From a bacterium (GTDB lineage: Bacteria > JACPSX01), in NCBI GenBank assembly GCA_035288405.1, contig DATEAK010000276.1, positions 1-14,234 of the forward strand: a DNA stretch of 14,234 nucleotides, in the 5' to 3' direction. Both the position numbers and the translations under genes were made by a program. The notes below the pieces were generated by a model. That model was not told the origin of the DNA. It saw only the letters and a program-made list of their open reading frames with translations, and made no database searches. This document shows positions 279 to 14,118 of the stretch, in pieces (the first letter of the stretch is position 1; each line of letters starts with the position of its first letter).

Positions 279-1403
279 TTAAGATTCCCGGCTGTGCAGC
301 CCCACAGTAGCCGTCCCTGTGACGGTAGTTTCCTTGCGCTGGTTTTCCGTCCACAGCTCGCAGTCGACCAGGCACTCGCTGCCCTCTTTGCGTTTGCCTG
401 TAATCCGTCCGCGACACCAGGTCGTATCTCCGAACAGGTTGGGACGCTCGATCTTCACCTGGAGACGTTTGAGAAACCCGTCATCCCCCATCCAATTCGT
501 CAGGAGGTGGCCCATCCAACTGATGCGTTGGTGGCCCACATCGTAGGCCCCGGGCATGCCGATGATTTCCCGGGCGACCCTCTCATCCAGGTGCCCCACG
601 GCAGCGTTGATGAGTTCGCCCTGGGCGTTGCGGTAAAACATCTTGTCGCCCTTATAGGGATCCAGATAGGATCGCTCCAGAGCCTTGAAGGGCGTAGGAT
701 AACCGAGGCCCGCCATGTAACAAACCATGTCCACGAGGTTCAGGGGACCTTTGACCACGGGAGTGATCAGGTCCCCCGCATTCACCTCTTCCCAGAATCG
801 GGTCTTGGATCCTCTCATTTCTTCGCGCAGAACGTCCTGGCGAATAGCTTCCAGTTGTTCCTCGGTGTAGGTCTGTCTGCGCGCCTCCTGGCGCATATGA
901 CCCTCGGCTCCAACCCGGGGAATGCGGAGTGTGCGTCCCAAAGCACGGGCAAGGAGCTTGCCGTCCTGCCGGGTGTAGGTAACTTCCCCCACCTGAATCA
1001 GGAAACGTTCCACTTTTTTCCCGCGATGTTCCTCTACGTCTACGATCCGCACGCATGGGGTAATGCCGTCACCGGCACGCGCCACATCGTAAAAAGTCCA
1101 ATCGGTTCCTCCGAAGATGAGCTGGATGCCTCCGAGCCCGGGGGCTACGATCGTCGTGTCAACGGTGTGCAGGAAAGTGGGCGGGGCAATCGTGCAGCCG
1201 TAAGGGCTTTTCTTGCCGTAATCCCGGCTGCACCAGAGAGGATTTTCGTCTCCGATTCCGTGGGCGTAGTGACGGATCGCGTCTTGACTCGCCTCCTCGT
1301 TCCATTGGTTTCCGGGTTTCGCTCGCACCACTTCCTGACCGATCATGGCGCGGGCTTCCTGAACCAGCTCGTCCGTCAAGGGAATTGGCTGGACACCTGA
1401 CAT
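279..1403 (-). CDS. MaoC-like / FAS1-type double hot-dog (R)-specific enoyl-CoA hydratase/dehydratase
   Basis: Track ORF is 279..1514. The likely true start is the internal ATG at 1403-1401 (MSGVQPIPLTDELVQEARAMIGQEV...), preceded by GGAGGAACCAAGTG. The ATG overlaps the IclR stop as TGATG. The ~374-aa product has an N-terminal non-catalytic hot-dog half and a C-terminal MaoC-like half (…GDDGFLKRLQVKIERPNLFGDTTWCRGRITGKRKE…). Confidence 0.75.
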   Translation of the reverse strand: MSGVQPIPLTDELVQEARAMIGQEVVRAKPGNQWNEEASQDAIRHYAHGIGDENPLWCSRDYGKKSPYGCTIAPPTFLHTVDTTIVAPGLGGIQLIFGGTDWTFYDVARAGDGITPCVRIVDVEEHRGKKVERFLIQVGEVTYTRQDGKLLARALGRTLRIPRVGAEGHMRQEARRQTYTEEQLEAIRQDVLREEMRGSKTRFWEEVNAGDLITPVVKGPLNLVDMVCYMAGLGYPTPFKALERSYLDPYKGDKMFYRNAQGELINAAVGHLDERVAREIIGMPGAYDVGHQRISWMGHLLTNWMGDDGFLKRLQVKIERPNLFGDTTWCRGRITGKRKEGSECLVDCELWTENQRKETTVTGTATVGLHSRES

Positions 1404-2323
1404 CACTTGGTTCCTCCGGTTGGGGTTAAACTTTTTGTTGCGGGGTTGAAAGCGGGGAAAACGAGCTTCTTGCCCGGGAATCCTATTTTCTGCGACAACT
1501 CGAGAGCCGCGCAAACAGCCGCCTGCCCGAGGGACTCGAAATCGCCGTCGAGGAACTGAGCAGCCGGCCTTCCAATGCCGATGGCACCCATCACCGCGCC
1601 GGATTGATCCAGCACCGGAGCAGCCACTGCCCTCACACCCGGAAGGGATTCGTTCCTGTTCGTGGCGTAACCTCTCCGGCGCACCCGTTCCAATTCTTGC
1701 AGAAGGAGCTTCGTGGAAACGATGGTCTCACGTGTGAAGGGACGAAGCGGGGATTTCTTCAGGAGCACTTTCACCTCAGCACCACTACATCCGGCCAGTA
1801 GAGCCTTTCCAATCGCGCCATAATGAATCGGACGCTGGTCCCCTTCGATGATGATCAGACGGACCTGGTCGGGGCTTTCAACGGCAGCCACGGTCACCTG
1901 GGTCAATTCCTCTCGATCGGCGACTCGGAAGAACACAGTGGCGCGATGGCGGGCGGCCACGGGCTTCAGGACGGGATTGGCCAGGTCACAGAGGTACTGA
2001 AAGTTGCGGACTCGCCTGCCCAGCTCGAACAGCTTGAGACCCAGGCAATACTTTCCGTTCGGTTCCTGTTGTTCCAGAAAGTGTCGCCCCACGAGCGTAC
2101 GCAGCGCTTTGTGCGCTCGGCTCTTGTGCAGCCCAAGACGACGGCTGATTTCGGTGACGCCCAGCTCTTTCTCGGGCCCGAGAAAGCATTCGAGGATGCG
2201 AAGGCCCACATCGAGCCCTTGGGCTAGATAAAGGGTCGTCTTCCGGCGACGAGGCGGTGAAGAAGTTGGCACTGAGTCCGTCCCCTCCGGGGGTAGAGAG
2301 TATAAGTGCAACTGCGATCCCAT
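1403..2323 (-). CDS. IclR-family transcriptional regulator
   Basis: N-terminal wHTH LAQGLDVGLRILECFLGPEKELGVTEISRRLGLHKSRAHKALRTLVGRHFLEQQ followed by an IclR-type C-terminal effector domain. Start is uncertain: no SD before ATG 2323. An internal GTG (residue 18) lies ~9 nt after GGAGGGG and is an alternative. Confidence 0.8.
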   Translation of the reverse strand: MGSQLHLYSLPPEGTDSVPTSSPPRRRKTTLYLAQGLDVGLRILECFLGPEKELGVTEISRRLGLHKSRAHKALRTLVGRHFLEQQEPNGKYCLGLKLFELGRRVRNFQYLCDLANPVLKPVAARHRATVFFRVADREELTQVTVAAVESPDQVRLIIIEGDQRPIHYGAIGKALLAGCSGAEVKVLLKKSPLRPFTRETIVSTKLLLQELERVRRRGYATNRNESLPGVRAVAAPVLDQSGAVMGAIGIGRPAAQFLDGDFESLGQAAVCAALELSQKIGFPGKKLVFPAFNPATKSLTPTGGTK

Positions 2324-2452
2324 CTGTTCTTGTATGGGAAAGCGAGTTTCGAGTTTAATCTTCTTGGCGCTGGATTGTAAACGGAAAAATTCAATGCCCC
2401 AACCCTATCCCAGAGGGAGAGGGAGAATCCATGTCCTGTCAAAATACGAGTC

Positions 2453-2526
2453 ATGGCCGCGGGCTCCTTGCGGTGGCATTTGTCGCAGTTCTCCTGGACG
2501 TTGTGGCCACCGAAACGGCGGCACAT
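2453..2526 (-). pseudogene. relic duplicate of the 3' end of the multihaem cytochrome gene (…GGHNVQENCDKCHRKEPAAM…)
   Basis: Nucleotides 2453-2526 are ~79% identical to 4139-4201, the 3' end of the cytochrome at 4106-4678, in the same orientation. Translation MCRRFGGHNVQENCDKCHRKEPAAM parallels ACASCHNTQENCQKCHRKQPTAM. A GGAGGAACT-ATG lies at 2526, but the downstream reading frame is low-complexity and runs into the IclR start region. It sits inside spurious track ORF 2224..2733. Confidence 0.4.
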
Positions 2527-2558
2527 AGTTCCTCCGCGGAAGGCCGCGGTAATCAGCC

Positions 2559-2587
2559 TTGACATTGCGCGGGCAAGGAAATAGAGT
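2559..2587 (+). promoter_or_regulatory. sigma70-like promoter candidate TTGACA-N17-TAGAGT upstream of the nucleotidyltransferase gene
   Basis: TTGACA at 2559-2564, a 17-nt spacer, then TAGAGT at 2582-2587, ~95 nt upstream of the 2684 start on the same strand. Sequence match only. Confidence 0.3.
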
Positions 2588-2683
2588 TGTTTCAAAGGAT
2601 TATGTTCGCGGATTGTTCCTGGTTGGAATGTGGGAACCGACGGCTGCGGGAATCGTGTTGGGAAGTGATCATCACTACGGGGG

Positions 2684-3037
2684 ATGCTTGTTGTGGCAAG
2701 ATCCAGGCAAGTGAAGAGTAGCCGGCCTCTCAAAGGGATTCTTCGGGAGCTTGCGCAGGCACTAAAAGACCGATACGGGGAGAAATTTGTGGGTCTCTGG
2801 CTCTATGGATCCCAGGCCCGCGGTCAGGCCCACGACCAATCAGACGTCGACCTTTTGTTGCTCCTGCGGGGAGAAGTCCGACCCTCAAAAGAAATTGACC
2901 GGATTGCCGACCTGCTGGCCGATTTTAACCTGCGGTACGGAGAACTCCTGTCGGTTCTCCCTGTACATGAGCAGACTTTCAAGAACGGCGACGGCCCTTT
3001 CTGGCGCAACGTGCGCCGGGAAGGCAAGGCCGCATGA
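2684..3037 (+). CDS. MntA-like minimal nucleotidyltransferase (Pol-beta superfamily), toxin-antitoxin-associated type
   Basis: Motif GSQARGQAHDQSDVDLLLLL matches the G-S-x(n)-D-x-D nucleotidyltransferase signature. Size is ~115 aa. The ATG at 2684 has a poor SD; GTG at 2693 preceded by GGGGGA is an alternative start. The stop overlaps the next gene as ATGA. Confidence 0.75.
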   Translation: MLVVARSRQVKSSRPLKGILRELAQALKDRYGEKFVGLWLYGSQARGQAHDQSDVDLLLLLRGEVRPSKEIDRIADLLADFNLRYGELLSVLPVHEQTFKNGDGPFWRNVRREGKAA

Positions 3038-3444
3038 TTGAACGGGAAGGCTTGATCCACAAGGCCCGGCGCTTCCTAATGAAGAAAGTACCGCCTAACG
3101 GAGCCCGGAGGAAAGATAACGGGATGCGTGCCGAATATGATTTCGCAGGCGGAATGCGCGGCAAGCACCATCGGGCCATGCAAGCCGGATATACAGTTAC
3201 GATTCATCAGGCGGATGGTACATCCGTCACTGAGGAGGTAAGACCTAAGGAAGGCGTAGTCATCCTAGCGCCAGATGTACGGGAGTACTTCCCGGACGCT
3301 GAGTCGGTGAACACAGCTTTGCGCTTGCTCATTAGGCTCATTCCTGACGAGCGTACCTCCGCTGCGAAAAGGGCGAAGAGTCGCGACGCGAGACGCCCGG
3401 ATGCCTTCCCCGGTGGCCGGAAATCGACCACGAAGAGGAGATAA
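3034..3444 (+). CDS. DUF4415/BrnA-like putative antitoxin-type protein
   Basis: The M-R-A-EYDF-AGG-M-RGK-H motif and …VVILAPDVREYFPDAESVNTALRLLIRL resemble the eYDFskakrGk / …v.irLd.dvleyf….iN.aLr… pattern of BrnA/DUF4415 proteins. The ATG at 3034 overlaps the upstream stop as ATGA. An internal ATG at 3124 (GGAGGA 11 nt upstream) would give a more typical ~106-aa product. No HEPN Rx4-6H motif is present, so it is not a HepT partner. Confidence 0.45.
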   Translation: MIEREGLIHKARRFLMKKVPPNGARRKDNGMRAEYDFAGGMRGKHHRAMQAGYTVTIHQADGTSVTEEVRPKEGVVILAPDVREYFPDAESVNTALRLLIRLIPDERTSAAKRAKSRDARRPDAFPGGRKSTTKRR

Positions 3445-3522
3445 GGGTAAATTGACTTCCGACTTATTTTCCAGGTCCAGGGGCTGGGTCAAAGGCCCTC
3501 GGTGAGATAGTGGAGGAGGACA

Positions 3523-3762
3523 ATGCCGAAGATTGAGGTAAACGAGGAGCAAATTCTGATTGCCCTGGAGCAGCTTTCTCCGGCGGCCAGACGGGTCGCA
3601 CTCGGCAAGCTGATTGGCGGCCTGGAAAGGCTCGACCGTCTGGTGGACCGAAACCGGGAAAAGATCGAGAGCATCTGTCGCGACCGAGGACTGGACTTTT
3701 CCCGACTCACGGAAGAAGAGCGCGAGGCACTGGTGGATGAGATTCTCCATACAGGTGCCTAG
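3523..3762 (+). CDS. small helical protein, putative antitoxin of the downstream PIN remnant
   Basis: Strong SD GGAGGAGGA directly before the ATG at 3523. The 79-aa product is charged, coiled-coil-like and has no TM. Its stop TAG at 3760-3762 is immediately followed by the GTG of the PIN fragment. Confidence 0.45.
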   Translation: MPKIEVNEEQILIALEQLSPAARRVALGKLIGGLERLDRLVDRNREKIESICRDRGLDFSRLTEEEREALVDEILHTGA

Positions 3763-3933
3763 GTGAAGGTTGTCCTGGACACCAACATCAATAAATTCCT
3801 CGAAACAGCTCAGGTCTCCGGCGCCACTTATATTATCTCTGGCGATCACCACCTTCTGAGTCTGGGAACATTTGCTAACATTTCTGTGATTCGAGCCCGC
3901 GCCTTTCTTGACACACTTGGTCCCAACGAGTAG
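3763..3933 (+). pseudogene. PIN-domain toxin remnant with in-frame internal deletion
   Basis: Starting from the GTG: VKVVLDTNI|NKFLETAQVSGATYIISGDHHLLSLGTFANISVIRARAFL…*. The N-terminal vvlDTN strand is fused directly to the C-terminal DNKFLE…A.YlvTgDkdLL……iltP.eFl segment of PIN_3-type toxins. About 80 central residues, including the catalytic acidic residues, are missing. At 56 aa it is below the track threshold. Confidence 0.5.
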
Positions 3934-4105
3934 AGGTTGCACAGAAGTATTTGCGGGTTCTTGATAAACTGGTGCGGGCGTACGGTCGGGCAAACCTGTC
4001 CATAACCGTCGATGGTGGAAAGTTTCGACAGTGAAACACCTTCCCTTTGGCCTCTTTCCTGGGGCAGGAGGAAAGGCTTCAGGAAAAGCAGACGGGTGAA
4101 GCGGT

Positions 4106-4678
4106 CTAGCTCGCTGATTTGTTCCCGGCTGCCGGGGCCATGGCTGTGGGCTGCTTGCGGTGACACTTCTGGCAGTTTTCCTGGGTATTGTGGCAGCTTG
4201 CACATGCCTCCATGGAAGGCCGGTTCGTCGGTGTGATGCGGGCGTCGTGGGCGATGTTCACGTGACATTGCACGCAGGCGACTCCCATGTCGCCGGCGTG
4301 AAGCTTGTGAGGAATCTTGATCCCCTACACGTTGACTCGCATGATTCTGGGCTCGCCGTTTCCCACTTCCTTGTGGCAACTGCGGCACTTCTTGTCCACG
4401 TCACCGGGATCCGCTGAGAAGCTCTGCGGGAAACCTTGAGCAATGGGAAACTTGGCCTTGCCGTGGCAGCCGATGCAGGGAATTTTGGAGGTGTGCCCTG
4501 TAGCGGAGACTGCAAGAGGTGTGGCCCCCTGACCGTGGCAGGTCAGGCAAAAGCTCGGATTGCCGGAGGAGTAGCGGATCAGAGACAGAGTTCCCACGAT
4601 ACTGAGAACGATCGCAGCCACGCCTCCTAGGAGGATGGGGCCGCGCCAGCGATGAGGGATGCGGATCCCGGGATTCAT
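4106..4678 (-). CDS. membrane-anchored NapC/NirT/NrfH-like multihaem cytochrome c (six CxxCH), interrupted by an in-frame TAG at 4325-4327
   Basis: Track ORFs 4325..4678 and 4106..4288 are in the same frame, separated by a single TAG (4327-4325) plus 12 sense codons (…RIMRVNV*GIKIPHKLHAGDMGVACVQCH…). There is an N-terminal TM helix, an SFCLTCH first-haem motif typical of NapC/NrfH, and then CIGCH, CRSCH | CVQCH, CASCH, CQKCH. SD GGAGGAAAACAATA precedes the ATG at 4678. There is no SD before the internal Met at 4288. Confidence 0.75.
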
Positions 4679-4692
4679 TATTGTTTTCCTCC

Positions 4693-6951
4693 TTACACCT
4701 TGGCTACTTCGACTTCAGTTTCCATCCAGGCGTATTCCTGGCTCACCGGATCTTCCTTTTTCGGAACGATGGCGTTTAGATAAATTCCGCTGCCTTGTCC
4801 CTCCCACCAGACCAGGAGGGTGTCGGGATCACTGCTCTTGAAGCTCTTGCCCCGGGCAATGCGGCCGTGCCCCCAGTGCCCGAAGCCTTCCGCACAGGCC
4901 ACCACCTGAGGGTGAACTCCCTGGCTGATCCGTACTTTCTGCGTGACGGTGCCGTTCGCAGTTTTCAGGCGCACCTGATCCCCCTCCCGCACATGCAGAG
5001 CTGCGGCGGTTTCAGGATGGAGCCACAGGGGGTTGTCATGCTGGATCTCGGCGAGCCACTTGCAGGCCGCGGTGCGAGACCCTCCGCGCACGGTGCCCTT
5101 GAAAGTGGCGAGCATGAGCCGGCCGTTCGTGCGCCCGTTTTTTTCGGGCTCATAGCTCGGCAATCCTGCGAATCCCTGGCGGTGCATGGCCTCGGAGTAA
5201 ACTTCAAAGCGGCGAGAGGCGGTCTTGAACCCTTTTCCCCGATACTGCCGGAATCGGGGCTTTGCTTTTTCGTTAAACCATACCCCTTTTTTCTTGAGGG
5301 CTTCAAACCCTCCGGCCCCGGCCAGTCCGTCGATCTTCGGGGCCACCTTTTCCAGGTAGTCTTCAAAACTCCGGTAGGGGAAGAACGGTTCGACTCCGGG
5401 GATTCGGCGCGCCAGATCCAGGCACACCTCGGTAAATGGTTTTACCTTGGGGGGAGGCGTGACGAGGGGTTGCCGCAAACTCACGTACGGTACGTGTTCG
5501 AAGCTGGGGCCTGACTCCAGATCCCAACGCTCGAGATAGGTGGCGTCGGGCAGGACCAAGTCGCACAAGATTGCGGTCTCGCTCATGAAGGTGTCCACTG
5601 CCACCGAGTAGGGAATGAGCCGCTCGTCCTTGAAGACTTGAGTGATGGACCCCGAGTCCGGGGAAGCGTAAACGGGGTTGGCGGTGTAGGCCAGGTAAAT
5701 TCCAACTTTGATTTTTCGGCGGGCAATGTCCGAGAACAGGTTGTTGTGGTGGAAGGGAGAAGCCTGGCTTACCTTGGGAGGCACCGGTGTCAGGTCCGGG
5801 ATCGCAGCTCGCCGAGGGAAACAGGGACCGCCGGGCACGTCGACGTTTCCGATCACGGCGTTCAGAAGCGCAACGCAGCGCTCGTTCTGTGTTCCCTGCT
5901 GCCGCATGGAAACTCCGCGACCCGTGAGTGTGGTCGCCGGCTTCGTGGTTGCAAACTCGCGGGCCAGCCTCCGGATCACTGCTGCCGGCACCCCGCTTAC
6001 CTTCTGGGCGGCTTCGGGCGTGTAGGGATCCAGGTGGCGGCGCATGTGAACCAGGGGGAAGTTCGTCCACTCTTCTAGAAACTGCCGGTCGTGGAGTCCT
6101 TCCTCGATGATGGTGCGGGCCATGGCCATGGCCACGAACCCGTCCGTTCCCGGAGTGATCGGGTACCACTCATCGCTGCGCCCCGAGGTGTTCGAGATGC
6201 GCACGTCGAAGGTGACCAGGCGGGCGCCGTTCATGCGAGCCTCGTTGAGGCGCTGGATGAGAGGCAGATGGAAGAGATAGGCCTCGTAAGGATTGCCGCC
6301 GAAGTTGAGGATGTATTTGCTACGGGAGATGTCGGGAATCAGCACATCCTCGCCGTAGGTGAGAAGAGAGGCTGTCTCCCGACTGGCGCCGCCCAGGGAA
6401 GTCTCCAGTGTGTCCGAGGAAGTTCCATAGGCATGCAGGAAGCGCCGCACGAAGTTCAGCGTGGCGTTCTCCTTGGACTTGAAGTTTCCCTGGAAGATGA
6501 AGCGGTCCGCCTGTCCTTTCGCCTTGAGCTCCTGCAGCTTGGTCGAGAGTTCCTGAATCGCCTGATCCCAGGAGATCTGTTCCCAGCGCATCTCCCCGCG
6601 CTTGCCCGTGCGCTTGAGGGGGAACAGGAGGCGATCCGGATTGTTCACCAGGTTGGTGCCCGCCTGGCCCCGGGCGCAGAGTTTGCCCCGATTATTGGGA
6701 TGCAGGGGATTACCCTCGATTTTCACCAGCCGCCCTGAGTTAGTATCCACGTAACCCAGGATGCCGCAGCCTGCCGCGCACTGAAAGCAGGTACTGGGGA
6801 TGGCGACCCGGGCTTTGCCGGTGGTACGTGATACTTCCTCTCCTCCCGGTTTGAGCTCCTGGCCGAGACCGGGCAGGGGAAGCATCTCCCCCAGGGCCAG
6901 AATTCCCGCCCCGCCGATTCCAAACTTAAGAAACCTTCTGCGATCAATCAT
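4693..6951 (-). CDS. Tat-exported molybdopterin (bis-MGD) oxidoreductase catalytic subunit, PsrA/PhsA/TtrA family
   Basis: N-terminal twin-arginine signal MIDRRRFLKFGIGGAGILALG. FS0 [4Fe-4S] motif CFQCAAGCGI…(27)…C. The 752-aa length matches PhsA/PsrA. Its start lies 2 nt after the SPFH stop (TAACGATG). Confidence 0.9.
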   Translation of the reverse strand: MIDRRRFLKFGIGGAGILALGEMLPLPGLGQELKPGGEEVSRTTGKARVAIPSTCFQCAAGCGILGYVDTNSGRLVKIEGNPLHPNNRGKLCARGQAGTNLVNNPDRLLFPLKRTGKRGEMRWEQISWDQAIQELSTKLQELKAKGQADRFIFQGNFKSKENATLNFVRRFLHAYGTSSDTLETSLGGASRETASLLTYGEDVLIPDISRSKYILNFGGNPYEAYLFHLPLIQRLNEARMNGARLVTFDVRISNTSGRSDEWYPITPGTDGFVAMAMARTIIEEGLHDRQFLEEWTNFPLVHMRRHLDPYTPEAAQKVSGVPAAVIRRLAREFATTKPATTLTGRGVSMRQQGTQNERCVALLNAVIGNVDVPGGPCFPRRAAIPDLTPVPPKVSQASPFHHNNLFSDIARRKIKVGIYLAYTANPVYASPDSGSITQVFKDERLIPYSVAVDTFMSETAILCDLVLPDATYLERWDLESGPSFEHVPYVSLRQPLVTPPPKVKPFTEVCLDLARRIPGVEPFFPYRSFEDYLEKVAPKIDGLAGAGGFEALKKKGVWFNEKAKPRFRQYRGKGFKTASRRFEVYSEAMHRQGFAGLPSYEPEKNGRTNGRLMLATFKGTVRGGSRTAACKWLAEIQHDNPLWLHPETAAALHVREGDQVRLKTANGTVTQKVRISQGVHPQVVACAEGFGHWGHGRIARGKSFKSSDPDTLLVWWEGQGSGIYLNAIVPKKEDPVSQEYAWMETEVEVAKV

Positions 6952-6953
6952 CG

Positions 6954-7952
6954 TTATTCACTCGCTGAATGGCTGCCGTTGGCGTCCGGCTTTTCACCGT
7001 TGCCGCTGTTGCTGTTCGTAATCTTGTTGAGCGCGGTCACGCCCATGAGAGCTCCCAGCCCCATGGTTTCGACGGCCGAGCTCGGTACGATGACCATGGA
7101 GCCCCTCTCCTTGAGGCCTTCGTAGAGCATGTTCATGGCTCGCAGGTGAAGGGCCGTGGGATTATCCTTGTAGGATTCGGCTGCCTCGGCGAACATCTGG
7201 GCAATCTGAGTCTCCGATCGTCCGAGGATCACTCGGGCCTGACGCTCTCTCTCTGCCTGGGCCTGGATCGACAGGGCGTCCTGGAGAGAGGCCGGGATGA
7301 TCACGTCCCGGATCTCCACGGAAAGAACCTGAAGGCCCCAGCCGTCGGTGCGCTTGTCAATGAGGTTCTTGATCTGCTCGTCGATATTCTCACGCCCCAC
7401 GAGCATATCGGAGAGCTCGCTCTTGCCGATCACATCCCGCAGAGCCGTCTGGGATGCCCAGCTGATCACGTCGTAGTAGTCGGTGACTTCCAGTGCCGCT
7501 TTTTCAGGGTTGACGACTTTCCAGAAGCAGACGGCGTCCACGTCTACGGGGACGTTGTCTTTGGTCAAGGTTTCCTCGGCCCGGAAGCCGGTAGCGGTTA
7601 GCCGCAGGTCGATCCAGTAGGGAATCGTGTCAATCAGGGGGAAGATGAAAAAGAGGCCCGGGCCCGCCATCCTATGGAATTTCCCCAAGCGCAGGACGAT
7701 GGCGCGCTCCCACTGAGTCGCGACCTTCAGAGCCAGAAGGATAAACACGCCCACCGCCAGCAGAATCCCAGTAGGAATCGGGTTGTTTGTCAGGACGAAG
7801 GCCCCTACTCCGAACAGGGCGCACGCCACAAACAAGGTGGCCGAGAGGAGATTCGGGCGCAGCGTACCGGCCCGGATCTTCTGGGCCTCGAACTCATCCT
7901 GCTGTCTTTTGGCGGCGCGCCGGATCTCTTGCTTGGTACTCGGTTCCATCAT
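6954..7952 (-). CDS. SPFH/band-7 (stomatin/HflKC-like) membrane protein
   Basis: One N-terminal TM followed by the characteristic ATQWERAIVLRLGKF…GPGLFFIFPLID SPFH core and a coiled-coil Q/E/R-rich region. Strong SD AAGGAGGAA sits 4-5 nt before ATGATG at 7952. It lies between the NrfD and catalytic-subunit genes. Confidence 0.85.
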   Translation of the reverse strand: MMEPSTKQEIRRAAKRQQDEFEAQKIRAGTLRPNLLSATLFVACALFGVGAFVLTNNPIPTGILLAVGVFILLALKVATQWERAIVLRLGKFHRMAGPGLFFIFPLIDTIPYWIDLRLTATGFRAEETLTKDNVPVDVDAVCFWKVVNPEKAALEVTDYYDVISWASQTALRDVIGKSELSDMLVGRENIDEQIKNLIDKRTDGWGLQVLSVEIRDVIIPASLQDALSIQAQAERERQARVILGRSETQIAQMFAEAAESYKDNPTALHLRAMNMLYEGLKERGSMVIVPSSAVETMGLGALMGVTALNKITNSNSGNGEKPDANGSHSASE

Positions 7953-7979
7953 TCAGTTCCTCCTTGCGTGGTTACCAGT

Positions 7980-8879
7980 TTAGTGTTGGGGAATTGCCTG
8001 TCCGCCGATTACCATGGTGTAGCGCATCGCGAAGATTCCGAGCATGACTAGAACCGAGGCCACCGAGATCCCAAAGGGGGTCCGGGTGATGCGGTTGCTC
8101 AAGAGGGCAAGGGGGACCAGCGCCCCCAGGAGGATCTCTCCTCCCAGGAAGATATTTCGGAAGGCCCCTGTGAGGATGAGTTGTGCGGCCTCGTACGCTT
8201 CGTCGTGGGAGTTCAAGAGGACGAGAATGTCCGTGCCGATCAGGGAGAGATCCGCAACGATGGATACGATCAGCATGACCACCAGGCCGTTGATGAGGTC
8301 CATGTTAATCTTGCGCTCGGCGCTGAAGAATTTGTCCCGGGCGATTGCGATCAGAATCATCATGGCGATTCCGGAAACCATGGCCGAAGCCAGAAAGATG
8401 AAGGGCATCAACGCCGTGTTCCACAAAATGCGCGCCTTGGCCAGAGCCAGGATGAACCCCGTGTAGCCGTGCACCGACAGGGCGAGCGGGATGCCGATCA
8501 AGCCGAAGATCTTTGTGAGCTTGGCTTTTCCCATAAACATGAAAGTTCCGTAGATCATGCAGTTGATCGGGTACAGGGTGAGAAGAAACGAACCGTAAGA
8601 AATGGCCGAAGTTGGGTTGATGTAGTAGAAGAGTTCCCAGAAGCGCCAGGGCTGCTCCAGGTCGATCATCAAGTTCAAGGGCGCCACGATAAGGAGCAGG
8701 ATAGCCACGACGACGCCGATCTTCCCCAGGGGCTTGTAGCGGATCATGCCGAAGCCGTAAGCCAGTGTGGACAGGATGAAGGAACCGGCGCTGAGTCCCG
8801 TGAGATAGAAATAAACGGCAATGGGGATCCCCAGAGCCTCTCCGTAAGCGACGTTGTAAATGGTCGTAACTTCAGTCAT
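7980..8879 (-). CDS. NrfD/PsrC-family polytopic membrane quinol-interacting anchor subunit
   Basis: 299 aa, ~8 hydrophobic helices, typical NrfD/PsrC composition. The start ATG is 1 nt after the FeS-subunit stop (TAAGATG), with AGAGGAAG SD. Confidence 0.9.
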   Translation of the reverse strand: MTEVTTIYNVAYGEALGIPIAVYFYLTGLSAGSFILSTLAYGFGMIRYKPLGKIGVVVAILLLIVAPLNLMIDLEQPWRFWELFYYINPTSAISYGSFLLTLYPINCMIYGTFMFMGKAKLTKIFGLIGIPLALSVHGYTGFILALAKARILWNTALMPFIFLASAMVSGIAMMILIAIARDKFFSAERKINMDLINGLVVMLIVSIVADLSLIGTDILVLLNSHDEAYEAAQLILTGAFRNIFLGGEILLGALVPLALLSNRITRTPFGISVASVLVMLGIFAMRYTMVIGGQAIPQH

Positions 8880-8880
8880 C

Positions 8881-9486
8881 TTAGGCTTCCTCTACCCTTG
8901 TTTTGGCGGCCATCTCATCGAGGCCGATATAGAAAACTCGGGGCTCGGTCCCCTTCTCGGGCTTGAGAACCTGGATTGCGTTGGTGGCGATGAGACGGGA
9001 GATTTCGCTTTCGGGGTCGTTCACGTCTCCAAACACGCGGGCCCCGCCGGGACAGGTGTTGACACAAGACGGCACCAGCCCGGCGTCCACCCGGTGAAAG
9101 CAGAAGGTGCATTTCTGCACGATTTTCTTGACGGGGTTCACGTGCCGGGCGTCGTAAGGACAGGCGGCCATGCAATACTTGCAGCCGATGCAGCGGTGCT
9201 CGTCGATCATGACGATGCCGTCGGGCCTGCGGTAGGTCGCTTTCACGGGGCACACGCTCAGGCAAGCGGGACGCTCGCAGTTGTTGCACAGGCTGGGGAT
9301 GAAGACACGCCGTACGTTGGGGTAAGACCCTTTCTCTACGGTCTTGACCCAGGTCCGGTAGACTCCGAGGGGAACATCGTTTTCACTCTTGCAGGCAACG
9401 GCGCAGGAGTGACAGCCCAGGCAGCGCCTCAAGTCAATGAGCATGGCGTAGCGTTTGCTTTTTTTTTGGGAACCATTCCCTTTCAC
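8881..9486 (-). CDS. PsrB/TtrB/NrfC-like four-cluster [4Fe-4S] electron-transfer subunit
   Basis: Four ferredoxin-type motifs: CLGCHSCAVACKSEN, CNNCERPACLSVCP, CIGCKYCMAACP, CTFCFHRVDAGLVPSCVNTCP. Conserved KRYAMLIDLRRCLGC N-terminus. GTG start. No Tat motif, so it is presumably a hitchhiker on the catalytic subunit. Confidence 0.9.
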   Translation of the reverse strand: MKGNGSQKKSKRYAMLIDLRRCLGCHSCAVACKSENDVPLGVYRTWVKTVEKGSYPNVRRVFIPSLCNNCERPACLSVCPVKATYRRPDGIVMIDEHRCIGCKYCMAACPYDARHVNPVKKIVQKCTFCFHRVDAGLVPSCVNTCPGGARVFGDVNDPESEISRLIATNAIQVLKPEKGTEPRVFYIGLDEMAAKTRVEEA

Positions 9487-9488
9487 GA

Positions 9489-9611
9489 TTACTTCCCTTT
9501 TTCAGAAAGGTTTTTCCCCTGCGCGCCAAAGGCGTGCCAGCTCCAGGCGGCAAACAGCGCCACCGCAAACAAAATTCCGCCGAACGTCAAAAAGATCTTA
9601 AACCAGGTCAC
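9489..9611 (-). CDS. unannotated 40-aa single-TM peptide (VTWFKIFLTFGGILFAVALFAAWSWHAFGAQGKNLSEKGK)
   Basis: GTG start at 9611-9609 lies 5 nt after AAAGGAGGAA. The TAA stop at 9491-9489 is 2 nt before the FeS-subunit start. It has a hydrophobic core and a basic C-tail, and is below the 60-aa track threshold. Confidence 0.3.
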   Translation of the reverse strand: MTWFKIFLTFGGILFAVALFAAWSWHAFGAQGKNLSEKGK

Positions 9612-9637
9612 TGGTTCCTCCTTTCATGGCCTTCGCG

Positions 9638-10054
9638 TTACCCTGAGTTCGGGGGGGTGCCCTCAGAGGAAAAGAATTGCTGTACCGTCCTGAGCCCGAT
9701 GAGGAGAGGAGTGGGCTCGGAGGACGCTGCGGGATCGAGGTTCTTCTCTGGGTCGAACCTCTCCAGGGATCTGTTGACGAGATGTTTGGTGATGGCTCCC
9801 ACGGCCAGCGCTACTAGAGAGCCTACGGCCAGCCAGAAGAGGCAGGCCACGGCCACTGCGAGGGCCATGCCGCCGACTACGAAGAGGGTGACGACTCCGC
9901 GCTCCGGCAGGGGAGAACCCATGATACTCACTGCCGAGATCAAGCCGAAAGAGCCCCCATAAAATATTCCCCAGGGAACTCCCACGAACAGAAAAACTGC
10001 GGCACCGGCAACAGCGCCGACTTTCAGTTGGAGTCGCAGTGCTCGTCGTGTCAT
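9638..10054 (-). CDS. hypothetical ~3-TM membrane protein with proline-rich soluble C-tail
   Basis: 138 aa. Three hydrophobic segments (AVAGAAVFLFVGVPWGIFYGG / FGLISAVSIMG / VVTLFVVGGMALAVAVACLFWLAVGSLVALAVGAI). Its start is 9 nt downstream of the receiver-gene stop. I recognise no family. Confidence 0.55.
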   Translation of the reverse strand: MTRRALRLQLKVGAVAGAAVFLFVGVPWGIFYGGSFGLISAVSIMGSPLPERGVVTLFVVGGMALAVAVACLFWLAVGSLVALAVGAITKHLVNRSLERFDPEKNLDPAASSEPTPLLIGLRTVQQFFSSEGTPPNSG

Positions 10055-10063
10055 GGCCCTCTC

Positions 10064-10495
10064 CTATTTTTGTACGCCCCCCTCCAGGGCCCGCAAAATC
10101 TGCCGCGGCTGGAAGGGCTCGAGAAAGCAAGGGAAGAAATCGACTTGCTCTCTTTCGCCACCGCAAAGCTCCGACTCATCTCCCACGGTTAGAATCACTC
10201 TGACCCCGGGATTGAGTCGGCGCACGATGGAAGCCACTTCGTATCCGGAAAGATCCCGAAGCTTCCCCTTGATGATGACTGCGTCCACCCCTCCGTTGAG
10301 CACCATGGAGACGGCCTTTCGGCCCTGGCGGGTTCGGGAAACCCGGTAGCCTTCCTCCTCGAGGAAATCCGTAAGGGACTCGCACTGGTCCTGTTCGTCG
10401 TGAACGAGAAGAATGCGCCGAACCTCGGGCCTTTCCGTGTCTCCGTTGCCCCTGGAGAAGAACTTTTTCCCAAGGAGATCCATCAATCCGTTCAT
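10064..10495 (-). CDS. stand-alone CheY-like receiver-domain protein with degenerate active site (pseudo-receiver)
   Basis: Track ORF is 10064..10546 with a GTG start. That start overlaps the sigma54 promoter, so the likely start is the ATG at 10495 (M18), with AGAGGAAC SD 7 nt upstream. The receiver fold is conserved (RRILLVHDE…T in RVILTVGD). However, the phospho-acceptor position reads VIIK (Lys) and the β5 Lys position reads CFLEPF (Glu). Confidence 0.7.
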   Translation of the reverse strand: MNGLMDLLGKKFFSRGNGDTERPEVRRILLVHDEQDQCESLTDFLEEEGYRVSRTRQGRKAVSMVLNGGVDAVIIKGKLRDLSGYEVASIVRRLNPGVRVILTVGDESELCGGEREQVDFFPCFLEPFQPRQILRALEGGVQK

Positions 10496-10529
10496 CGGTG
10501 GTTCCTCTGTTAGTGTTGCCATGGAGAAG

Positions 10530-10546
10530 TGCAGGTTGTGTGCCAC
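10530..10546 (-). promoter_or_regulatory. sigma54 (RpoN) -24/-12 promoter TGGCAC-N5-CTGCA for the oxidoreductase operon
   Basis: The minus strand reads G-TGGCAC-ACAAC-CTGCA (plus 10530-10546 tgcaggttgtgtgccac). This is one mismatch from TGGCAC-N5-TTGCA. It lies ~35 nt upstream of the proposed receiver start and downstream of an NtrC-type activator gene. Confidence 0.5.
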
Positions 10547-10591
10547 AGCGCCGACACACCGGCAACGCCTTAGCAGGCCGCTGAAAAAGTC

Positions 10592-10616
10592 TCGTGGTTC
10601 GACAGGCTCACCACGA
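10592..10616. promoter_or_regulatory. inverted repeat TCGTGGT-N11-ACCACGA, candidate enhancer-binding-protein UAS
   Basis: Perfect 7-bp arms at 10592-10598 and 10610-10616, centred ~85 bp upstream of the predicted sigma54 transcription start. Confidence 0.3.
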
Positions 10617-10784
10617 ACGGTTAAGTACTAATGTTTTCAATAGCAGTCCCGTTCGGCCTGAGCTTGTCGAAGGCCAAATGGAGGGCGTTAGATTTGCTGG
10701 AAGATTTGAGGGTCTGAGGAGTGTTCAGGAAGTTCGGAAAGGAGGGGAGAAAAAAAGTGAAACGAAGTTTTGCAAAGGATCATT

Positions 10785-12167
10785 TCATTCTTTAATGTCT
10801 TTCTGGCTCTCCTCAATCTTGCGCCAGAGGGTCACGGTGCTGATTCCGAGGATCTCAGAAGCCTTTTTGCGGTTCCAGCGGGTGGCCTGCAGAACTTCCA
10901 AAATGTAGTCTTGCTCGATCTTCTTGAGGGAAGGGTATTGATCAACCCCCTTGGCGTCATTTATAGCAACAGATGAGGCGGGTACCGCTTCGCTGTTGAG
11001 CTGGCTGAAGCTGTCTATGGTGATTATCTCTGCTTCGGTGAGGATCACGGCGCGCTCGACGGCGTTTTCCAGCTCCCGGACATTTCCAGGCCACGGGTAG
11101 CTCTCCAGGAGAGCACGAGCTCCAGGGGTGAACCCCCTCACCCGTTTCTTCAAATCCGCGTTATACTTCGCGAGAAAGTAGTCGGCCAGCAGAGGAATAT
11201 CTCCCGGTCGTTCACGCAAGGGAGGAAGCATGATCGGCATCACATTCAGCCGGTAGTAGAGATCCTCGCGAAAGGTGCCGCGGCGGATGGCATCCTTCAG
11301 ATCCCGATTCGTGGCCGCCACGATGCGCACATCTACGAAGACCTTGCGCTCGCTTCCCACGGGCTGGATCTCTCTCTCCTGCAAGGCTCGCATGAGCTTG
11401 GCCTGGAGATCAACGCTCATGTCCCCTACCTCGTCCAGGAACAAAGTTCCGCCGTCGGCGAGCTCGAAGAGCCCTTTCTTACGGCGCAGGGCTCCGGTAA
11501 AGGCGCCCTTCTCATGGCCAAAGAGCTCGCTTTCCAGGAGATCCGCGGGGATGGCGGCGCAATTGACCACCACCAACTGGCCGTTGGCACGGCTGCTCTT
11601 CTGATGAACCTGCCGGGCCACGAGCTCCTTGCCCGTTCCCGTTTCCCCCAGGATCAGCACCGTGGAATCAGTGACGGCCACCTTGTCGATGAGCTGGCAT
11701 ACTTTCTGAATGGGGTCACTCTCGCCGATGATTTTTCCGGCGCTCACGGAACGGCGCAGGGCTTCCTTGAGGGCCCGGTTTTCCTGGAGGAGGTGCTGGC
11801 GCTCCAGGGCATTTTTGATCACCAGGCGCAGCTCGTCGGGGGTGAAGGGCTTGGGAACGTAGTCTACAGCCCCCTCCCGCATGGATTCCACCGCCGTGTC
11901 CACGTCGGCGTAACCCGTGATCATGATGACCGCCAGTTGGGAATCGATTTTGTGAAGGGATCGCAGGAGCTCGATGCCGCTCATCTTGGGCATCTTGATG
12001 TCGGCCACGATGATATCGAAAGCGTCGGTCCGAAAGCGCTCAAGGGCTTCGAAGCCGTTGCTGCAGGTCACGACCTCGTAATTTTCTTTCTTGAGGGCTT
12101 GGGTGCAGGCGTCCCGTGTGTCTTCCTCGTCGTCCACGATCAGGATGCGCTTGCGGGGCAGTTCCAT
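10785..12167 (-). CDS. NtrC-family sigma54-dependent response regulator (receiver + AAA+ + Fis-type HTH)
   Basis: Canonical receiver (ILIVDDEED…IIVADIKMP), Walker A GETGTGKE, the GAFTGA motif, and C-terminal HTH EILGISTVTLWRKI. AAAGGG SD. The gene lies 13 nt downstream of the kinase stop. Confidence 0.92.
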   Translation of the reverse strand: MELPRKRILIVDDEEDTRDACTQALKKENYEVVTCSNGFEALERFRTDAFDIIVADIKMPKMSGIELLRSLHKIDSQLAVIMITGYADVDTAVESMREGAVDYVPKPFTPDELRLVIKNALERQHLLQENRALKEALRRSVSAGKIIGESDPIQKVCQLIDKVAVTDSTVLILGETGTGKELVARQVHQKSSRANGQLVVVNCAAIPADLLESELFGHEKGAFTGALRRKKGLFELADGGTLFLDEVGDMSVDLQAKLMRALQEREIQPVGSERKVFVDVRIVAATNRDLKDAIRRGTFREDLYYRLNVMPIMLPPLRERPGDIPLLADYFLAKYNADLKKRVRGFTPGARALLESYPWPGNVRELENAVERAVILTEAEIITIDSFSQLNSEAVPASSVAINDAKGVDQYPSLKKIEQDYILEVLQATRWNRKKASEILGISTVTLWRKIEESQKDIKE

Positions 12168-12180
12168 AAACCCTTTCCCT

Positions 12181-14118
12181 CTATGCAGACACCGCAGCCA
12201 CGCCGGCCTGCACCGGAAGGCGAAAGATCAGAGCCGTCCCTCCTTCACCGTTGCCGCTCTCAATCCAGATGTTTCCCCCGTGCCTCTGGATGATCCCGTA
12301 ACAGATGGAGAGACCGAGTCCCGTCCCTTTATCTTTGGTCGTGTAAAAGGGCTCGAAAACTTTGGAGTGCAGTGCCTTGGGAATGCCGGGCCCGTTGTCT
12401 TTTACCGTCACAACGACCCAGTCTAGATCGAGTGCCCGGGTAATGACCTCGATCCGTCCTCCGGCATGAAATGCCTGGACGGAGTTCTGCATGACGTTCA
12501 CCAGAACCTGCTGGATCTGACTGCGGTCGCAGATAACCCGGGGAAGATCGGGTTCCAAGTGCAAGTGACACTCTACATTATTAATACGGATCTCGTTGGC
12601 CAAAATGCTATTGGCGGCCAGGACGATCTGATTCATATCGTTGGGTTCCATGTCCGTGTTGGTGCTGCGAGTGTAGTCCAGCAGATCCGAGACGATCTTC
12701 TTGCTGCGCACCACGTTGTCCACGATCTTGCGGATGTTCTTGTAATGAGGATCCTCGGGGGCGGTTTCCTCCAGGACGAGCTTGGAATAGAGGAGGATGT
12801 TTCCCAAGGGATTGTTGATCTCATGAGCCACGCCGGCGGCGAGCTGCCCCGTGGCTGCCAGGCGCTCGGAGTGGATGAGCTGCTTTTGCAGTGATTCCCG
12901 GCTCTTCTCCTCGGTGAGATCGTGGGTAATATCCACATAGGCCAGGGTGTGGTCGTGCTCGTCTCGCAGGCTGCTGATGTTGACAAAAGCAGGGAAAGTT
13001 TTACCGTTCTTGCGCAGAAGCTGAATCTCGCTCCGGTAGGATCCTTCCAGTTCAACGGCATTCCAGACTCGACGCTGCGTCTCTCCCAGGAGGGAGTAAG
13101 GCTCACCGGTTAGTTCCATAGCACCGTAGCCGAGCATCTCCTCGGCGCCGTGACTGAAGAAAAGGATGGTGCCGTTGGGATCTATGACGATGATGGACTC
13201 GCGCACGTTGCCAAGCACCCGCTCCAGGAGTTCCTTTTTGTCCCGAATCTCGATGGAGCGTTTGAGGGCGTCGGCCATCTCGTTGAAGGATTGGGCCAGA
13301 ACTCCGATCTCGTCTTCTCCTTCGCCCAGAACTTTCCTGTCGAAATCCCCCTTGCTGAAGAACTTCGTCAAGTCCACGAGCTTTTTCAGGCGGTTGATCA
13401 CCAGGCGGTTCAACAGGAGACTCAGGACGATGACCGCGGTGATGATCATGAGTCCCATGGAGTAGAGAACCTCTCTGAATTTCGTGGCGATTTGCTTCTC
13501 AATGTCGGTCATGGAGAAGTCGGTGATGAGGACCCCGTTGATCTTGGTCAGGGGACTGTGACAGCCGTAGCACTCGGGTTCGTTGAAGATGGGGTTCACG
13601 TTGCGGAAGATTTGCTCGCCGTTCTCTTCCTTATATATGACGGTCTTGTTACGCACTTCGGGGCTATACCGGTGGCAGATCTGGCAGGTGTAATCGTTCT
13701 GATTGAGGATCTCACCGACCCGTCTCATCTCCGGGGACATCTTGATCTCCCCGCGCTTGTCCACCAGGAAAATGTTGTCTACCCCCTTCTGCTTGCCGAC
13801 GGTTTCGATGATGTAGCGGGCCTCCTCCAGATCGCGGTTGATCATGGCGTGCTTGAGGCTCCCCTTGATGACGTCGCTTAAGTAATGGGTGCTGGAATCC
13901 CGCAGGTTTTCGATGAGGTCGTGGCGAAAGCGGAACACCTGGTAGCTGTAGAAGACCGACATGATGGCCACGATGGCCACCACGATCCCCACAGTTGCCT
14001 TGAAGCGTAAGCTTTGATGAAACCTCTTGATCCTCAAAGGCCAACCTATGGATGCAGAACGAACTTCGAACGGTTGACCCCTCCCAATGGGGAATACATG
14101 TAGTCTCTTTGGGGACAA
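12181..14118 (-). CDS. sensor histidine kinase: TM, periplasmic domain with two c-type haem motifs, TM, HAMP, PAS, HisKA, HATPase_c
   Basis: TM1 ATVGIVVAIVAIMSVFYSY. ~160-aa periplasmic region containing CQICH (13686-13672) and CYGCH (13572-13558). TM2 VLYSMGLMIITAVIVLSLLL. Then HAMP, PAS, the H-box AAGVAHEINNPL, and N/G1/G2 boxes (DNGPGIP…GTGLGLSI). The track start at 14118 is TTG; the true start is uncertain. Confidence 0.9.
   Translation of the reverse strand: MSPKRLHVFPIGRGQPFEVRSASIGWPLRIKRFHQSLRFKATVGIVVAIVAIMSVFYSYQVFRFRHDLIENLRDSSTHYLSDVIKGSLKHAMINRDLEEARYIIETVGKQKGVDNIFLVDKRGEIKMSPEMRRVGEILNQNDYTCQICHRYSPEVRNKTVIYKEENGEQIFRNVNPIFNEPECYGCHSPLTKINGVLITDFSMTDIEKQIATKFREVLYSMGLMIITAVIVLSLLLNRLVINRLKKLVDLTKFFSKGDFDRKVLGEGEDEIGVLAQSFNEMADALKRSIEIRDKKELLERVLGNVRESIIVIDPNGTILFFSHGAEEMLGYGAMELTGEPYSLLGETQRRVWNAVELEGSYRSEIQLLRKNGKTFPAFVNISSLRDEHDHTLAYVDITHDLTEEKSRESLQKQLIHSERLAATGQLAAGVAHEINNPLGNILLYSKLVLEETAPEDPHYKNIRKIVDNVVRSKKIVSDLLDYTRSTNTDMEPNDMNQIVLAANSILANEIRINNVECHLHLEPDLPRVICDRSQIQQVLVNVMQNSVQAFHAGGRIEVITRALDLDWVVVTVKDNGPGIPKALHSKVFEPFYTTKDKGTGLGLSICYGIIQRHGGNIWIESGNGEGGTALIFRLPVQAGVAAVSA

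Follow-up and report, generated by a model that had tools for sequence, protein, structure and literature searches.

The ttrBCA and srdBCA operons have the gene order B-C-A, and Aio arsenite oxidase is a known enzyme of the molybdenum (Mo)-bis(pyranopterin guanine dinucleotide) (bisPGD) type without a protein ligand to Mo. PsrABC and PhsABC are the closest sequence relatives of the A and B subunits described here. In both QrcABCD and alternative complex III (ACIII), a cofactor-less Mo-like subunit is found with an NrfD subunit, an iron-sulfur (FeS) subunit and a cytochrome of the penta- or hexahaem type (PMC6303296, PMC13059093). The redox parts of QrcABCD are all periplasmic (PMC6303296, PMC13059093). 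QrcB is without any redox cofactors (PMC13059093), and ActB of ACIII has lost Mo/W-bisPGD (W, tungsten) and three [4Fe-4S] clusters (PMC10100899). The NrfD-type subunits of Qrc and ACIII have 10 helices, while the 8-helix type normally partners true Mo enzymes (PMC6303296). Here we describe an eight-gene operon, with a kinase and an activator gene directly upstream, in the bacterial contig DATEAK010000276.1 (assembly GCA_035288405.1, GTDB lineage Bacteria; JACPSX01). The whole stretch analyzed, the complete contig of 14,234 nucleotides from position 1, is called the window. Judged by sequence comparison, the operon is a member of an uncharacterised family with a wide distribution and does not encode a standard reductase for sulfur, arsenic or selenium.

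The A subunit (752 aa, minus strand, 4693–6951) is a Tat-exported PsrA-like protein by Pfam, and its best match in the PDB is PsrA (2vpw_A, E 1.8e-65). The usual three-subunit composition is present: Molybdop_Fe4S4, Molybdopterin and Molydop_binding domains with the FS0 Cys group (C55, C58, C62 and C92), Fer4_11 in the FeS subunit and NrfD in the membrane subunit. The metal ligand is missing. HMMER alignments to structures place Cys173 of PsrA, the Cys of the Fdh 9vap (in RICH), the Cys of acetylene hydratase 2e7z and Asp170 of PcrA (5e7o) at Gly187/Gly188. The number of Cys173 was counted along the printed alignment, and this residue is reported to be the metal ligand of PsrA (Jormakka et al. 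2008). When annotated PhsA (E. coli SE11 plasmid), ArxA, which is the Mo subunit of the arx cluster on a Sulfuricella denitrificans plasmid, and YnfF are aligned by MAFFT, their Cys, Cys and Ser, respectively, fall in the Gly187-Gly188 column. Against all seven references, the window protein has Gly-Gly where Cys, Sec, Ser or Asp would offer a side chain to Mo or W. From C92, the fourth FS0 ligand, to C359 the protein contains no further Cys. It is 27–29% identical to PhsA, ArxA and YnfF. Every NCBIfam model falls below its cut-off: PhsA, the best match, scores 340 bits (cut-off 694), followed by dmsA_ynfE (257; 778), QrcB (197; 440), YnfF (176; 1650), ArrA (159; 1600) and TtrA (147; 1750). 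The initial annotation of this DNA had read the operon as an ordinary respiratory molybdoenzyme, with sulfur oxyanions, polysulfide, arsenate or selenate as equally likely substrates, and had proposed placing the A subunit by profile hidden Markov models and by its ligand residue. PsrA and PhsA do come out as the best matches, but with all cut-offs missed and the Mo/W-coordinating residue absent, the ordinary assignment is not supported.

A scan of one genome per species gave at least 548 related loci. Eighty were fetched, and the A-subunit alignment (MAFFT) holds 82 non-duplicate loci, numbered here with L. The metal-ligand Cys is missing in 66 of the 82, and 13 different residues (G, E, F, S, Y, T, R, Q, H and others) occupy its place. 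The other 16 keep an invariant I-C-E motif and are called Cys-type. A same-strand adjacent open reading frame (ORF) with at least three CxxCH motifs accompanies 62/66 Cys-less loci versus 2/16 Cys-type loci. The four Cys-less exceptions are truncated contigs with 600 nt or less left downstream. Where flanks are adequate, the cytochrome gene is adjacent in 45/45 Cys-less versus 1/7 Cys-type loci. Fisher's test gives p 1.5e-10 for all loci and 3e-7 for those with adequate flanks, counts that are not phylogenetically independent. The alignment and the gene neighborhoods thus show that loss of the predicted ligand is coupled family-wide with a putative multihaem cytochrome gene. The Cys-type invariants I186, C187, E188, H228, Y344, R345 and D469 are variable in the Cys-less group, and the Arg equivalent to PsrA R332 is lost in 60 of its 66 members. 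In both groups, H638, H692 and W715-W716 show conservation of 90% or more. Cys377, in a GGxC motif, was considered as a replacement metal ligand and ruled out: Cys-type relatives carry Cys377 also. In a neighbor-joining (NJ) tree from the 354 N-terminal columns, the Cys-less proteins form one derived clade; in the NJ tree of full-length sequences, for which PhsA, ArxA and YnfF served as outgroups, the Cys-type group is nested inside the Cys-less proteins. As the two trees conflict, a single Cys-loss event is not claimed. The family as a whole branches separately from PhsA, ArxA and YnfF.

The cytochrome c gene (minus strand, 4106–4678) encodes six CxxCH motifs, as the initial annotation stated, with a membrane anchor and a NapC/NrfH-like N-terminus, but its reading frame is stopped by an in-frame TAG at 4325–4327, after the third haem motif (..RVNV*GIKIPHKLH..). 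The related locus L005, a 90%-identical Candidatus Tectomicrobia groundwater contig from a metagenome-assembled genome (MAG), has CAA (Gln) at this position and an unbroken frame of 195 codons. A recoded TAG was ruled out: TAG is the normal stop of the kinase, pseudo-receiver and cytochrome genes of the window, and the orthologue has Gln. Together these facts point either to a nonsense mutation from CAG to TAG or to a mistake in the assembly. This organism may thus have a defective complex, or the base may have been miscalled. The NrfH model matches residues 17–76 only (E 3.4e-9, 37 bits against a cut-off of 134). Cytochrom_NNT reaches 21 bits against a cut-off of 24, and only the transmembrane (TM) helix and first-haem region match. 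A 12-haem homologue in L009 passes Cytochrom_NNT over residues 13–69 (30 bits). The commonest cytochrome partner in the family has 12 haems and 400–420 aa. The six-haem type, found also in L005, L016, L017, L022 and L032, corresponds in alignment to the N-terminal half of the 12-haem proteins; the aligned part takes in the TM helix, the NapC/NirT-like first haem and KIPH(K/Q)LH.

All ten genes lie on the minus strand at the coordinates of the initial annotation, from the kinase (12181–14118) to the cytochrome. Junction lengths are 1–27 nt, and a Shine-Dalgarno (SD)-like sequence precedes every gene. One closely packed minus-strand unit with FeS-NrfD-Mo (B-C-A) order, as first proposed, is supported by this predicted layout. 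Gene content and order also agree with that proposal, except that the cytochrome had been read through the in-frame TAG. A scan for terminators and sigma-70 promoters gave no more matches than shuffled sequence did, none of them a convincing internal terminator. The whole window gave zero Rfam matches at E up to 1. L005 has the same ten genes in identical order with 82–93% nucleotide identity, and codon changes between the two loci are more often synonymous than non-synonymous in all major genes. Given this likeness, the window probably comes from a near relative of the Candidatus Tectomicrobia organism of L005.

The extra genes had been considered unusual. This does not hold: contigs of Tectomicrobia, Methylomirabilota/NC10 and other metagenomic origin also carry slipin, pseudo-receiver, sigma-54 activator and haem kinase genes beside the same core. 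The full layout of kinase, sigma-54 activator, pseudo-receiver, (cytochrome), FeS, NrfD, slipin, A and cytochrome is found in L002 (a Joint Genome Institute (JGI) metagenome), L007 (Methylomirabilota/NC10) and L086, while L085 has the same layout minus the regulators. The gene-neighborhood comparison proposed initially thus finds SPFH and pseudo-receiver genes together with this A-subunit clade, and the layout recurs in at least five other metagenomic contigs. No description of the Cys-less family, or of its SPFH/pseudo-receiver/haem-kinase context, was found in the searchable literature, whose coverage is incomplete; within this limit the statement that no operon of such make-up has been described stands.

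The first gene is preceded by a −24/−12 sigma-54-type promoter, TGGCACacaacCTGCA (minus strand, 10530–10545), which reads TGGCAC-N5-CTGCA and has one mismatch to TGGCAC-N5-TTGCW. By number alone, such matches are not above chance, with five found in the window at two or fewer mismatches and 6.3 expected. The promoter is convincing because the element holds the same position in five related loci, 5′ of the pseudo-receiver gene: TGGCACgcaacCTGCA in L005, cGGCACcctttTTGCT in L002 and L007, TGGCATaagccTTGCT in L085 and TGGCATgaagaTTGCG in L086. A GG-N10-GC element 5′ of the first gene together with an adjacent bacterial enhancer-binding protein (receiver, AAA+ and helix-turn-helix, HTH) is the arrangement of a sigma-54 operon. 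The initial annotation placed a near-consensus −24/−12 element in the 238-bp gap upstream of the operon. An element does stand before the first gene and is conserved, but it lies outside that gap, on the mechanically called GTG start (10546) of the pseudo-receiver. The ATG at 10511 is missing from L005, and the common start is ATG 10495 after AGAGGA; from this comparison the start is revised from GTG 10546 to ATG 10495. In L086 the pseudo-receiver start of the public gene caller (ATGGCA, position 3924) likewise falls within the sigma-54 promoter, as does GTGGCA 10546 in the window. A start codon called inside the promoter yields a spurious N-terminal extension.

Further upstream, a candidate activator-binding inverted repeat, TGAAATGA-N14-TCGTTTCA (minus strand, 10758–10787), starts at the stop codon of the activator gene, and this block is conserved in L005. 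Between activator gene and promoter, the window has about 110 extra bp relative to L005 (within about 10546–10687). They contain an element of about 74 bp (10598–10671) that resembles a miniature inverted-repeat transposable element (MITE), with 12-nt terminal inverted repeats TTCGACAAGCTC and GAGCCTGTCGAA. It was seen in no other fetched locus and has no Rfam match. Its translation gives the peptide strings 'FDKLRPNG ... VVSLSNHE', which occur in many spurious hypothetical proteins of uncultured bacteria. The plus-strand ORF at 10594–10908 is an artefact of translating this element.

The sensor histidine kinase (minus strand, 12181–14118; the TTG start is uncertain) has HAMP, PAS, HisKA and HATPase domains by Pfam. 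TM1 (residues 39–57) and TM2 (223–241) enclose a loop of 165 residues with two CxxCH haem-c motifs, C145QICH and C183YGCH. The CQICH...CxxCH sensor is also present in kinases of L005, L007, L010 and L048. The second haem site shows weak likeness to the Geobacter haem-c PAS sensor 3b47 (E 0.07) and to PF21563 (E 0.003). The activator (minus strand, 10785–12167) starts 13 nt past the kinase gene. It is an NtrC/AtoC-type sigma-54-dependent response regulator with receiver, AAA+ and Fis-type HTH (Pfam Sigma54_activat E 6.6e-74, Response_reg E 1.2e-32, HTH_8), and it scores below the cut-off of each NCBIfam equivalog model. An NtrC-type activator and a periplasmic di-haem kinase directly upstream of the operon, as well as a degenerate receiver within it, had been predicted before, and the domains, haem motifs and TM helices agree. 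The pseudo-receiver (143 aa, minus strand, 10064–10495; Pfam Response_reg E 3.2e-12, SD AGAGGA) is the first gene of the operon. It has Lys at the position of CheY D57 and Glu at that of K109; in the same alignment, the activator's own receiver gives identical columns. Both substitutions are also found in the orthologues of L005, L002 and L007, so a receiver fold with its phospho-acceptor Asp replaced is kept in two distant lineages.

The slipin gene (minus strand, 6954–7952) encodes a stomatin-like SPFH protein (Pfam Band_7 E 2.5e-35) with an N-terminal hydrophobic hairpin formed by two segments within residues 35–77, and its close homologues are named 'slipin family protein' by NCBI. The SPFH gene noted at first inspection is thus confirmed. 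The nearest homologues (64–71% identity) are all encoded between NrfD and the Mo-like A gene. Generic slipins in unrelated contexts (Paludibacter, Halothiobacillus) are still about 60% identical, and a dedicated divergent SPFH subfamily was ruled out on this ground. A second SPFH subfamily, 35–43% identical to the window slipin and 59–88% within itself, accompanies this core in loci of Chloroflexota and of the Syntrophobacterales type, either 5′ of the FeS gene or 3′ of A. SPFH genes occur in 15/66 Cys-less loci and 0/16 Cys-type loci. Recruitment of two subfamilies at three different positions argues for a functional link. Two SPFH subfamilies independently tied to one respiratory module would offer a bacterial case for an SPFH-scaffold role in membrane redox complexes.

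The PsrB-like FeS subunit (minus strand, 8881–9486) matches PsrB over its full length (PDB 2vpw_B, E 1.4e-62; Pfam Fer4_11). It has 16 Cys in four CxxCxxCxxxC-type groups and no signal peptide of its own. Its best NCBIfam model is TtrB (259 bits, under the TtrB cut-off), and it exceeds the DsrO equivalog cut-off by 9 bits (208.9 versus 200), so automatic pipelines could mislabel it as the sulfate-reduction protein DsrO. The NrfD/PsrC-family quinone-interacting subunit (299 aa, minus strand, 7980–8879; Pfam NrfD E 8.9e-44) has about eight TM helices and is under all cut-offs of the NCBIfam QrcD, TtrC, NrfD and DsrP models. Its sole PDB match is a weak one to ActC of ACIII (6f0k_C, E 5.5e-6). 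The PDB search gave no match to T. thermophilus PsrC, although A and B best match PsrA and PsrB. Two small membrane proteins without Pfam or NCBIfam matches precede the FeS gene. The 138-aa protein (minus strand, 9638–10054) has an SD sequence and two to three hydrophobic segments by hydropathy; its orthologue is found only in L005, with the frame intact and 25 synonymous and 23 non-synonymous codon changes. The 40-aa peptide (minus strand, 9489–9611) has one TM helix and a strong SD, AAGGAGG. Its ORF is common only to the window and L005, with five synonymous and six non-synonymous changes, and coding is plausible but weakly supported.

An unbiased search for conserved neighbors across the family yielded, beyond the core and regulatory genes, just SPFH, TorD and a Rieske gene. 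The other recurrent neighbor "families" were rejected as alternative-frame ORFs within the Mo gene. A few kb or less from seven Cys-less loci, namely L011 (14830–15303), L026, L027, L036, L052, L067 and L068, is a gene for a Tat-signal Rieske [2Fe-2S] protein with a PetC-like anchor (PF00355). This suggests a neighboring Rieske/cytochrome b-type complex. Putative sigma-54 two-component control is common to the wider family. Genes for PhnD-type binding proteins lie beside the Cys-type loci L020, L029, L053, L065 and L080, and by analogy the Cys-type branch looks like a system that responds to oxyanions, as aio and arx do. ACR3-type arsenite efflux genes are seen in L020 (3331–4413; Cys-type, Bacillota) and L057 (194–1324; Cys-less, Thermoleophilia), a weak hint of a link to arsenic or antimony. 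In the window itself, the flanking genes at 279–3444 are unrelated to the operon. They encode a FAS1/MaoC-type dehydratase (279–1514, minus strand), an IclR regulator (1403–2323, minus strand), a nucleotidyltransferase-domain protein (2684–3037, plus strand) and a 136-aa protein with no family match (3034–3444, plus strand). The last two ORFs overlap by 4 nt, and the pair has a toxin-antitoxin-like appearance. The roughly 660 nt 3′ of the cytochrome gene (3445–4105) hold no convincing ORF, Rfam match or terminator-like site.

We tentatively prefer, at only just short of an even chance, a Psr-derived complex that links menaquinone to multihaem cytochromes and is wired like Qrc or ACIII. The PsrB-like protein with four [4Fe-4S] clusters, the 8-helix NrfD/PsrC subunit, the Tat-exported PsrA-like subunit and the membrane-anchored multihaem cytochrome c would form a periplasm-facing assembly. 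Electrons would run between the menaquinone pool at the NrfD site, the four B-subunit clusters and the haems. The PsrA-like subunit would have abandoned Cys-Mo chemistry on sulfur, arsenic or selenium compounds; as a relic or side branch, it probably retains FS0 together with a pterin cofactor. The di-haem kinase may sense the periplasmic redox state or a haem ligand and phosphorylate the NtrC-type activator, which would then open the sigma-54 promoter. The pseudo-receiver, the first product of this promoter, may feed back on the kinase/activator pair, and the slipin may scaffold or quality-control the membrane complex. It is possible, though somewhat doubtful, that the family is a third widespread class of quinone:multihaem-cytochrome oxidoreductase derived from complex iron-sulfur molybdoenzymes (CISM), an evolutionary intermediate between Psr-type enzymes and the cofactor-less Qrc and ACIII. 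This same cautious proposal includes, as parts of one whole, that the Mo ligand and active site were lost and an obligatory cytochrome was gained, that FS0, the pterin motifs and sometimes TorD were kept, and that a subset was built with an SPFH scaffold and with control by a periplasmic haem-sensing kinase through sigma-54.

Several observations weigh against a pure electron-transfer complex. The window A subunit keeps Arg345, the equivalent of PsrA R332. Close relatives are all from MAGs, of more than 10 phyla, and the two NJ trees disagree on Cys-less monophyly. Unlike QrcB and ActB, the A subunit keeps the FS0 cysteines and pterin-type motifs, and its NrfD partner has about eight helices against 10 in QrcD and ACIII. 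Some of these points speak at the same time for a catalytic Mo/W-bisPGD enzyme with a metal site that, as in Aio, has no protein ligand. Such an enzyme would act on a small periplasmic substrate, perhaps an oxyanion, with the multihaem cytochrome as a second electron outlet or inlet beside the quinone site. We consider this less likely than not, though it is the main rival. The FS0 cysteines are invariant across the family, a sign of cofactor insertion; in the Cys-less and the Cys-type group alike, conservation of the pterin-type motifs GxNP and DxRxT...PGTD is 90% or more, and the Tat motif is conserved as well. A gene for a TorD/NarJ-family chaperone (PF02613) stands 3′ of the A gene in 11 Cys-type and 7 Cys-less loci, not in the window. 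The 8-helix NrfD type fits a true Mo enzyme, new clade-specific residues are found near the old ligand (N190 in 96%, P221 in 99%), and the 201 synonymous versus 78 non-synonymous changes between the window and L005 indicate strong purifying selection on the A subunit. Cys-type relatives are placed under sets like AioXSR/ArxXSR (PhnD-type binding protein, kinase and sigma-54 regulator), and ACR3 genes stand beside three loci, Azoarcus KH32C, L020 and the Cys-less L057. On the other hand, the ligand column and its neighbors are hypervariable, and the release of the Cys-type active-site invariants from constraint is typical of an active site that has been lost. In the window protein Ser replaces N190, and the window and its closest loci have no gene for a substrate-binding protein and no ars gene.

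A respiratory reductase of the ordinary Psr/Phs/Ttr/Arr/Srd type, reducing sulfur oxyanions, polysulfide, arsenate or selenate, is highly improbable. It would account for the best matches to PhsA in NCBIfam and to PsrA and PsrB in the PDB, for a B-C-A order like that of ttrBCA and srdBCA, and for the public name 'thiosulfate reductase/polysulfide reductase chain A' of some homologues. It does not fit a ligand position without Cys, Sec, Ser or Asp, equivalog cut-offs of the A subunit missed by a factor of at least 2, or the low identity to PhsA, ArxA and YnfF in a family that branches apart from PhsA and ArxA. Quite unlikely, too, is that the operon is decaying in this organism, with the cytochrome nonsense codon and the MITE-like insertion as marks of a non-functional locus. 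TAG at 4327–4325 replaces a Gln of L005 and serves as a regular stop codon in the contig, elsewhere in the clade the cytochrome partner is universal, and some 110 extra bp with a repeat element separate the activator gene from the promoter. However, neither the promoter nor the candidate upstream site is disrupted by the insertion, the remaining genes are unbroken with synonymous changes in excess against L005, and one C-to-T difference in a third-party MAG assembly could reflect population variation or an assembly fault.

Members of the family routinely bear the names "thiosulfate/polysulfide reductase chain A" or "molybdopterin-dependent oxidoreductase", which could inflate sulfur-cycling counts in metagenomic surveys. 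If Cys-less members do lack sulfur chemistry, sulfur-cycling inferences would be wrong for many groundwater and sediment lineages, among Chloroflexota, Nitrospirota, Nitrospinota, Methylomirabilota, Tectomicrobia, Thermodesulfobacteriota, Actinomycetota, anammox Planctomycetes and Armatimonadota. The family may also offer a natural series for how catalytic molybdoenzymes became pure electron-transfer complexes such as Qrc and ACIII, from Cys-type with TorD and no cytochrome, to Cys-less with TorD and cytochrome, to Cys-less with cytochrome and SPFH.

Compared with PsrABC and PhsABC (T. thermophilus PsrABC, PDB entries 2vpw–2vpz), the window system has the same Tat-exported A subunit with FS0, four-cluster B subunit, 8-helix NrfD-type C subunit and periplasmic orientation. 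It differs in that the Mo-ligand Cys is gone (PsrA C173 is replaced by Gly) and the R332 equivalent is lost in most members of the clade; of the PhsA cut-off, the Cys ligand and the active-site Arg, the window protein retains the Arg alone. Window A is 29% identical to PhsA and reaches about half of its NCBIfam cut-off score. The gene order is B-C-A rather than A-B-C, and the window family has an obligatory multihaem cytochrome partner. TtrBCA and SrdBCA share the B-C-A order, and TtrB gives the best NCBIfam match of the FeS subunit, but TtrA has about 1020 aa and a Cys ligand, whereas window A has 752 aa and stays far under the TtrA model. The curated cut-offs for Ttr, Arr/Arx and DmsA/Ynf are all missed.

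The aio and arx operons are controlled by a kinase and a sigma-54 activator, as is predicted for the window. The third component of AioXSR/ArxXSR, a PhnD-type binding protein, is present in Cys-type sister loci and has no gene in the window. AioA differs from window A by its 3Fe-4S cluster, its Rieske partner and the lack of NrfD; ArxA carries Cys and is 28% identical to window A, and the window kinase is of the di-haem type. The closest cultured relative was found by a tblastn search of plasmids, on plasmid pAZKH of the denitrifier Azoarcus sp. KH32C (WP_015451713; L088, NC_020548.1, 59931–68244). Its A subunit has 36.8% identity to that of the window by tblastn over the full length and 39.5% over aligned columns. 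This cluster consists of FeS-NrfD-Mo (879 aa)-TorD and five further small genes, with a divergent PhnD-type binding protein, kinase and sigma-54 regulator, and arsA and ACR3 adjoin. By analogy, it looks like an aio/arx-style oxyanion-responsive system, and its Mo subunit failed every curated family model. The FeS-NrfD-Mo order and the neighboring sigma-54 regulator and kinase are shared with the window. Unlike the window, the Azoarcus cluster keeps the Cys (HTSVCESSKK), has TorD and lacks a multihaem cytochrome or SPFH gene.

ACIII shares with the window an NrfD-type quinol site, FeS clusters and a Mo-like domain, which is cofactor-less in ACIII, and its pentahaem cytochrome links quinol to cytochrome c. 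ActABCDEF contains a fused ActB (Mo-like and FeS), two 10-helix NrfD-type subunits and extra subunits, while the window encodes separate A and B subunits and one NrfD; the window proteins match chains of 6f0k, 6btm and 6lod weakly, and the composition is not that of ACIII. QrcABCD has a different gene order, and its NCBIfam models are all missed (QrcB 197 of 440 bits, QrcC 129 of 400, QrcD 34 of 570). In its modules, however, the window system is like QrcABCD: all four are present, namely a TM-anchored hexahaem cytochrome, a Mo-like subunit apparently without a working Mo site, a four-cluster FeS protein and an NrfD subunit.

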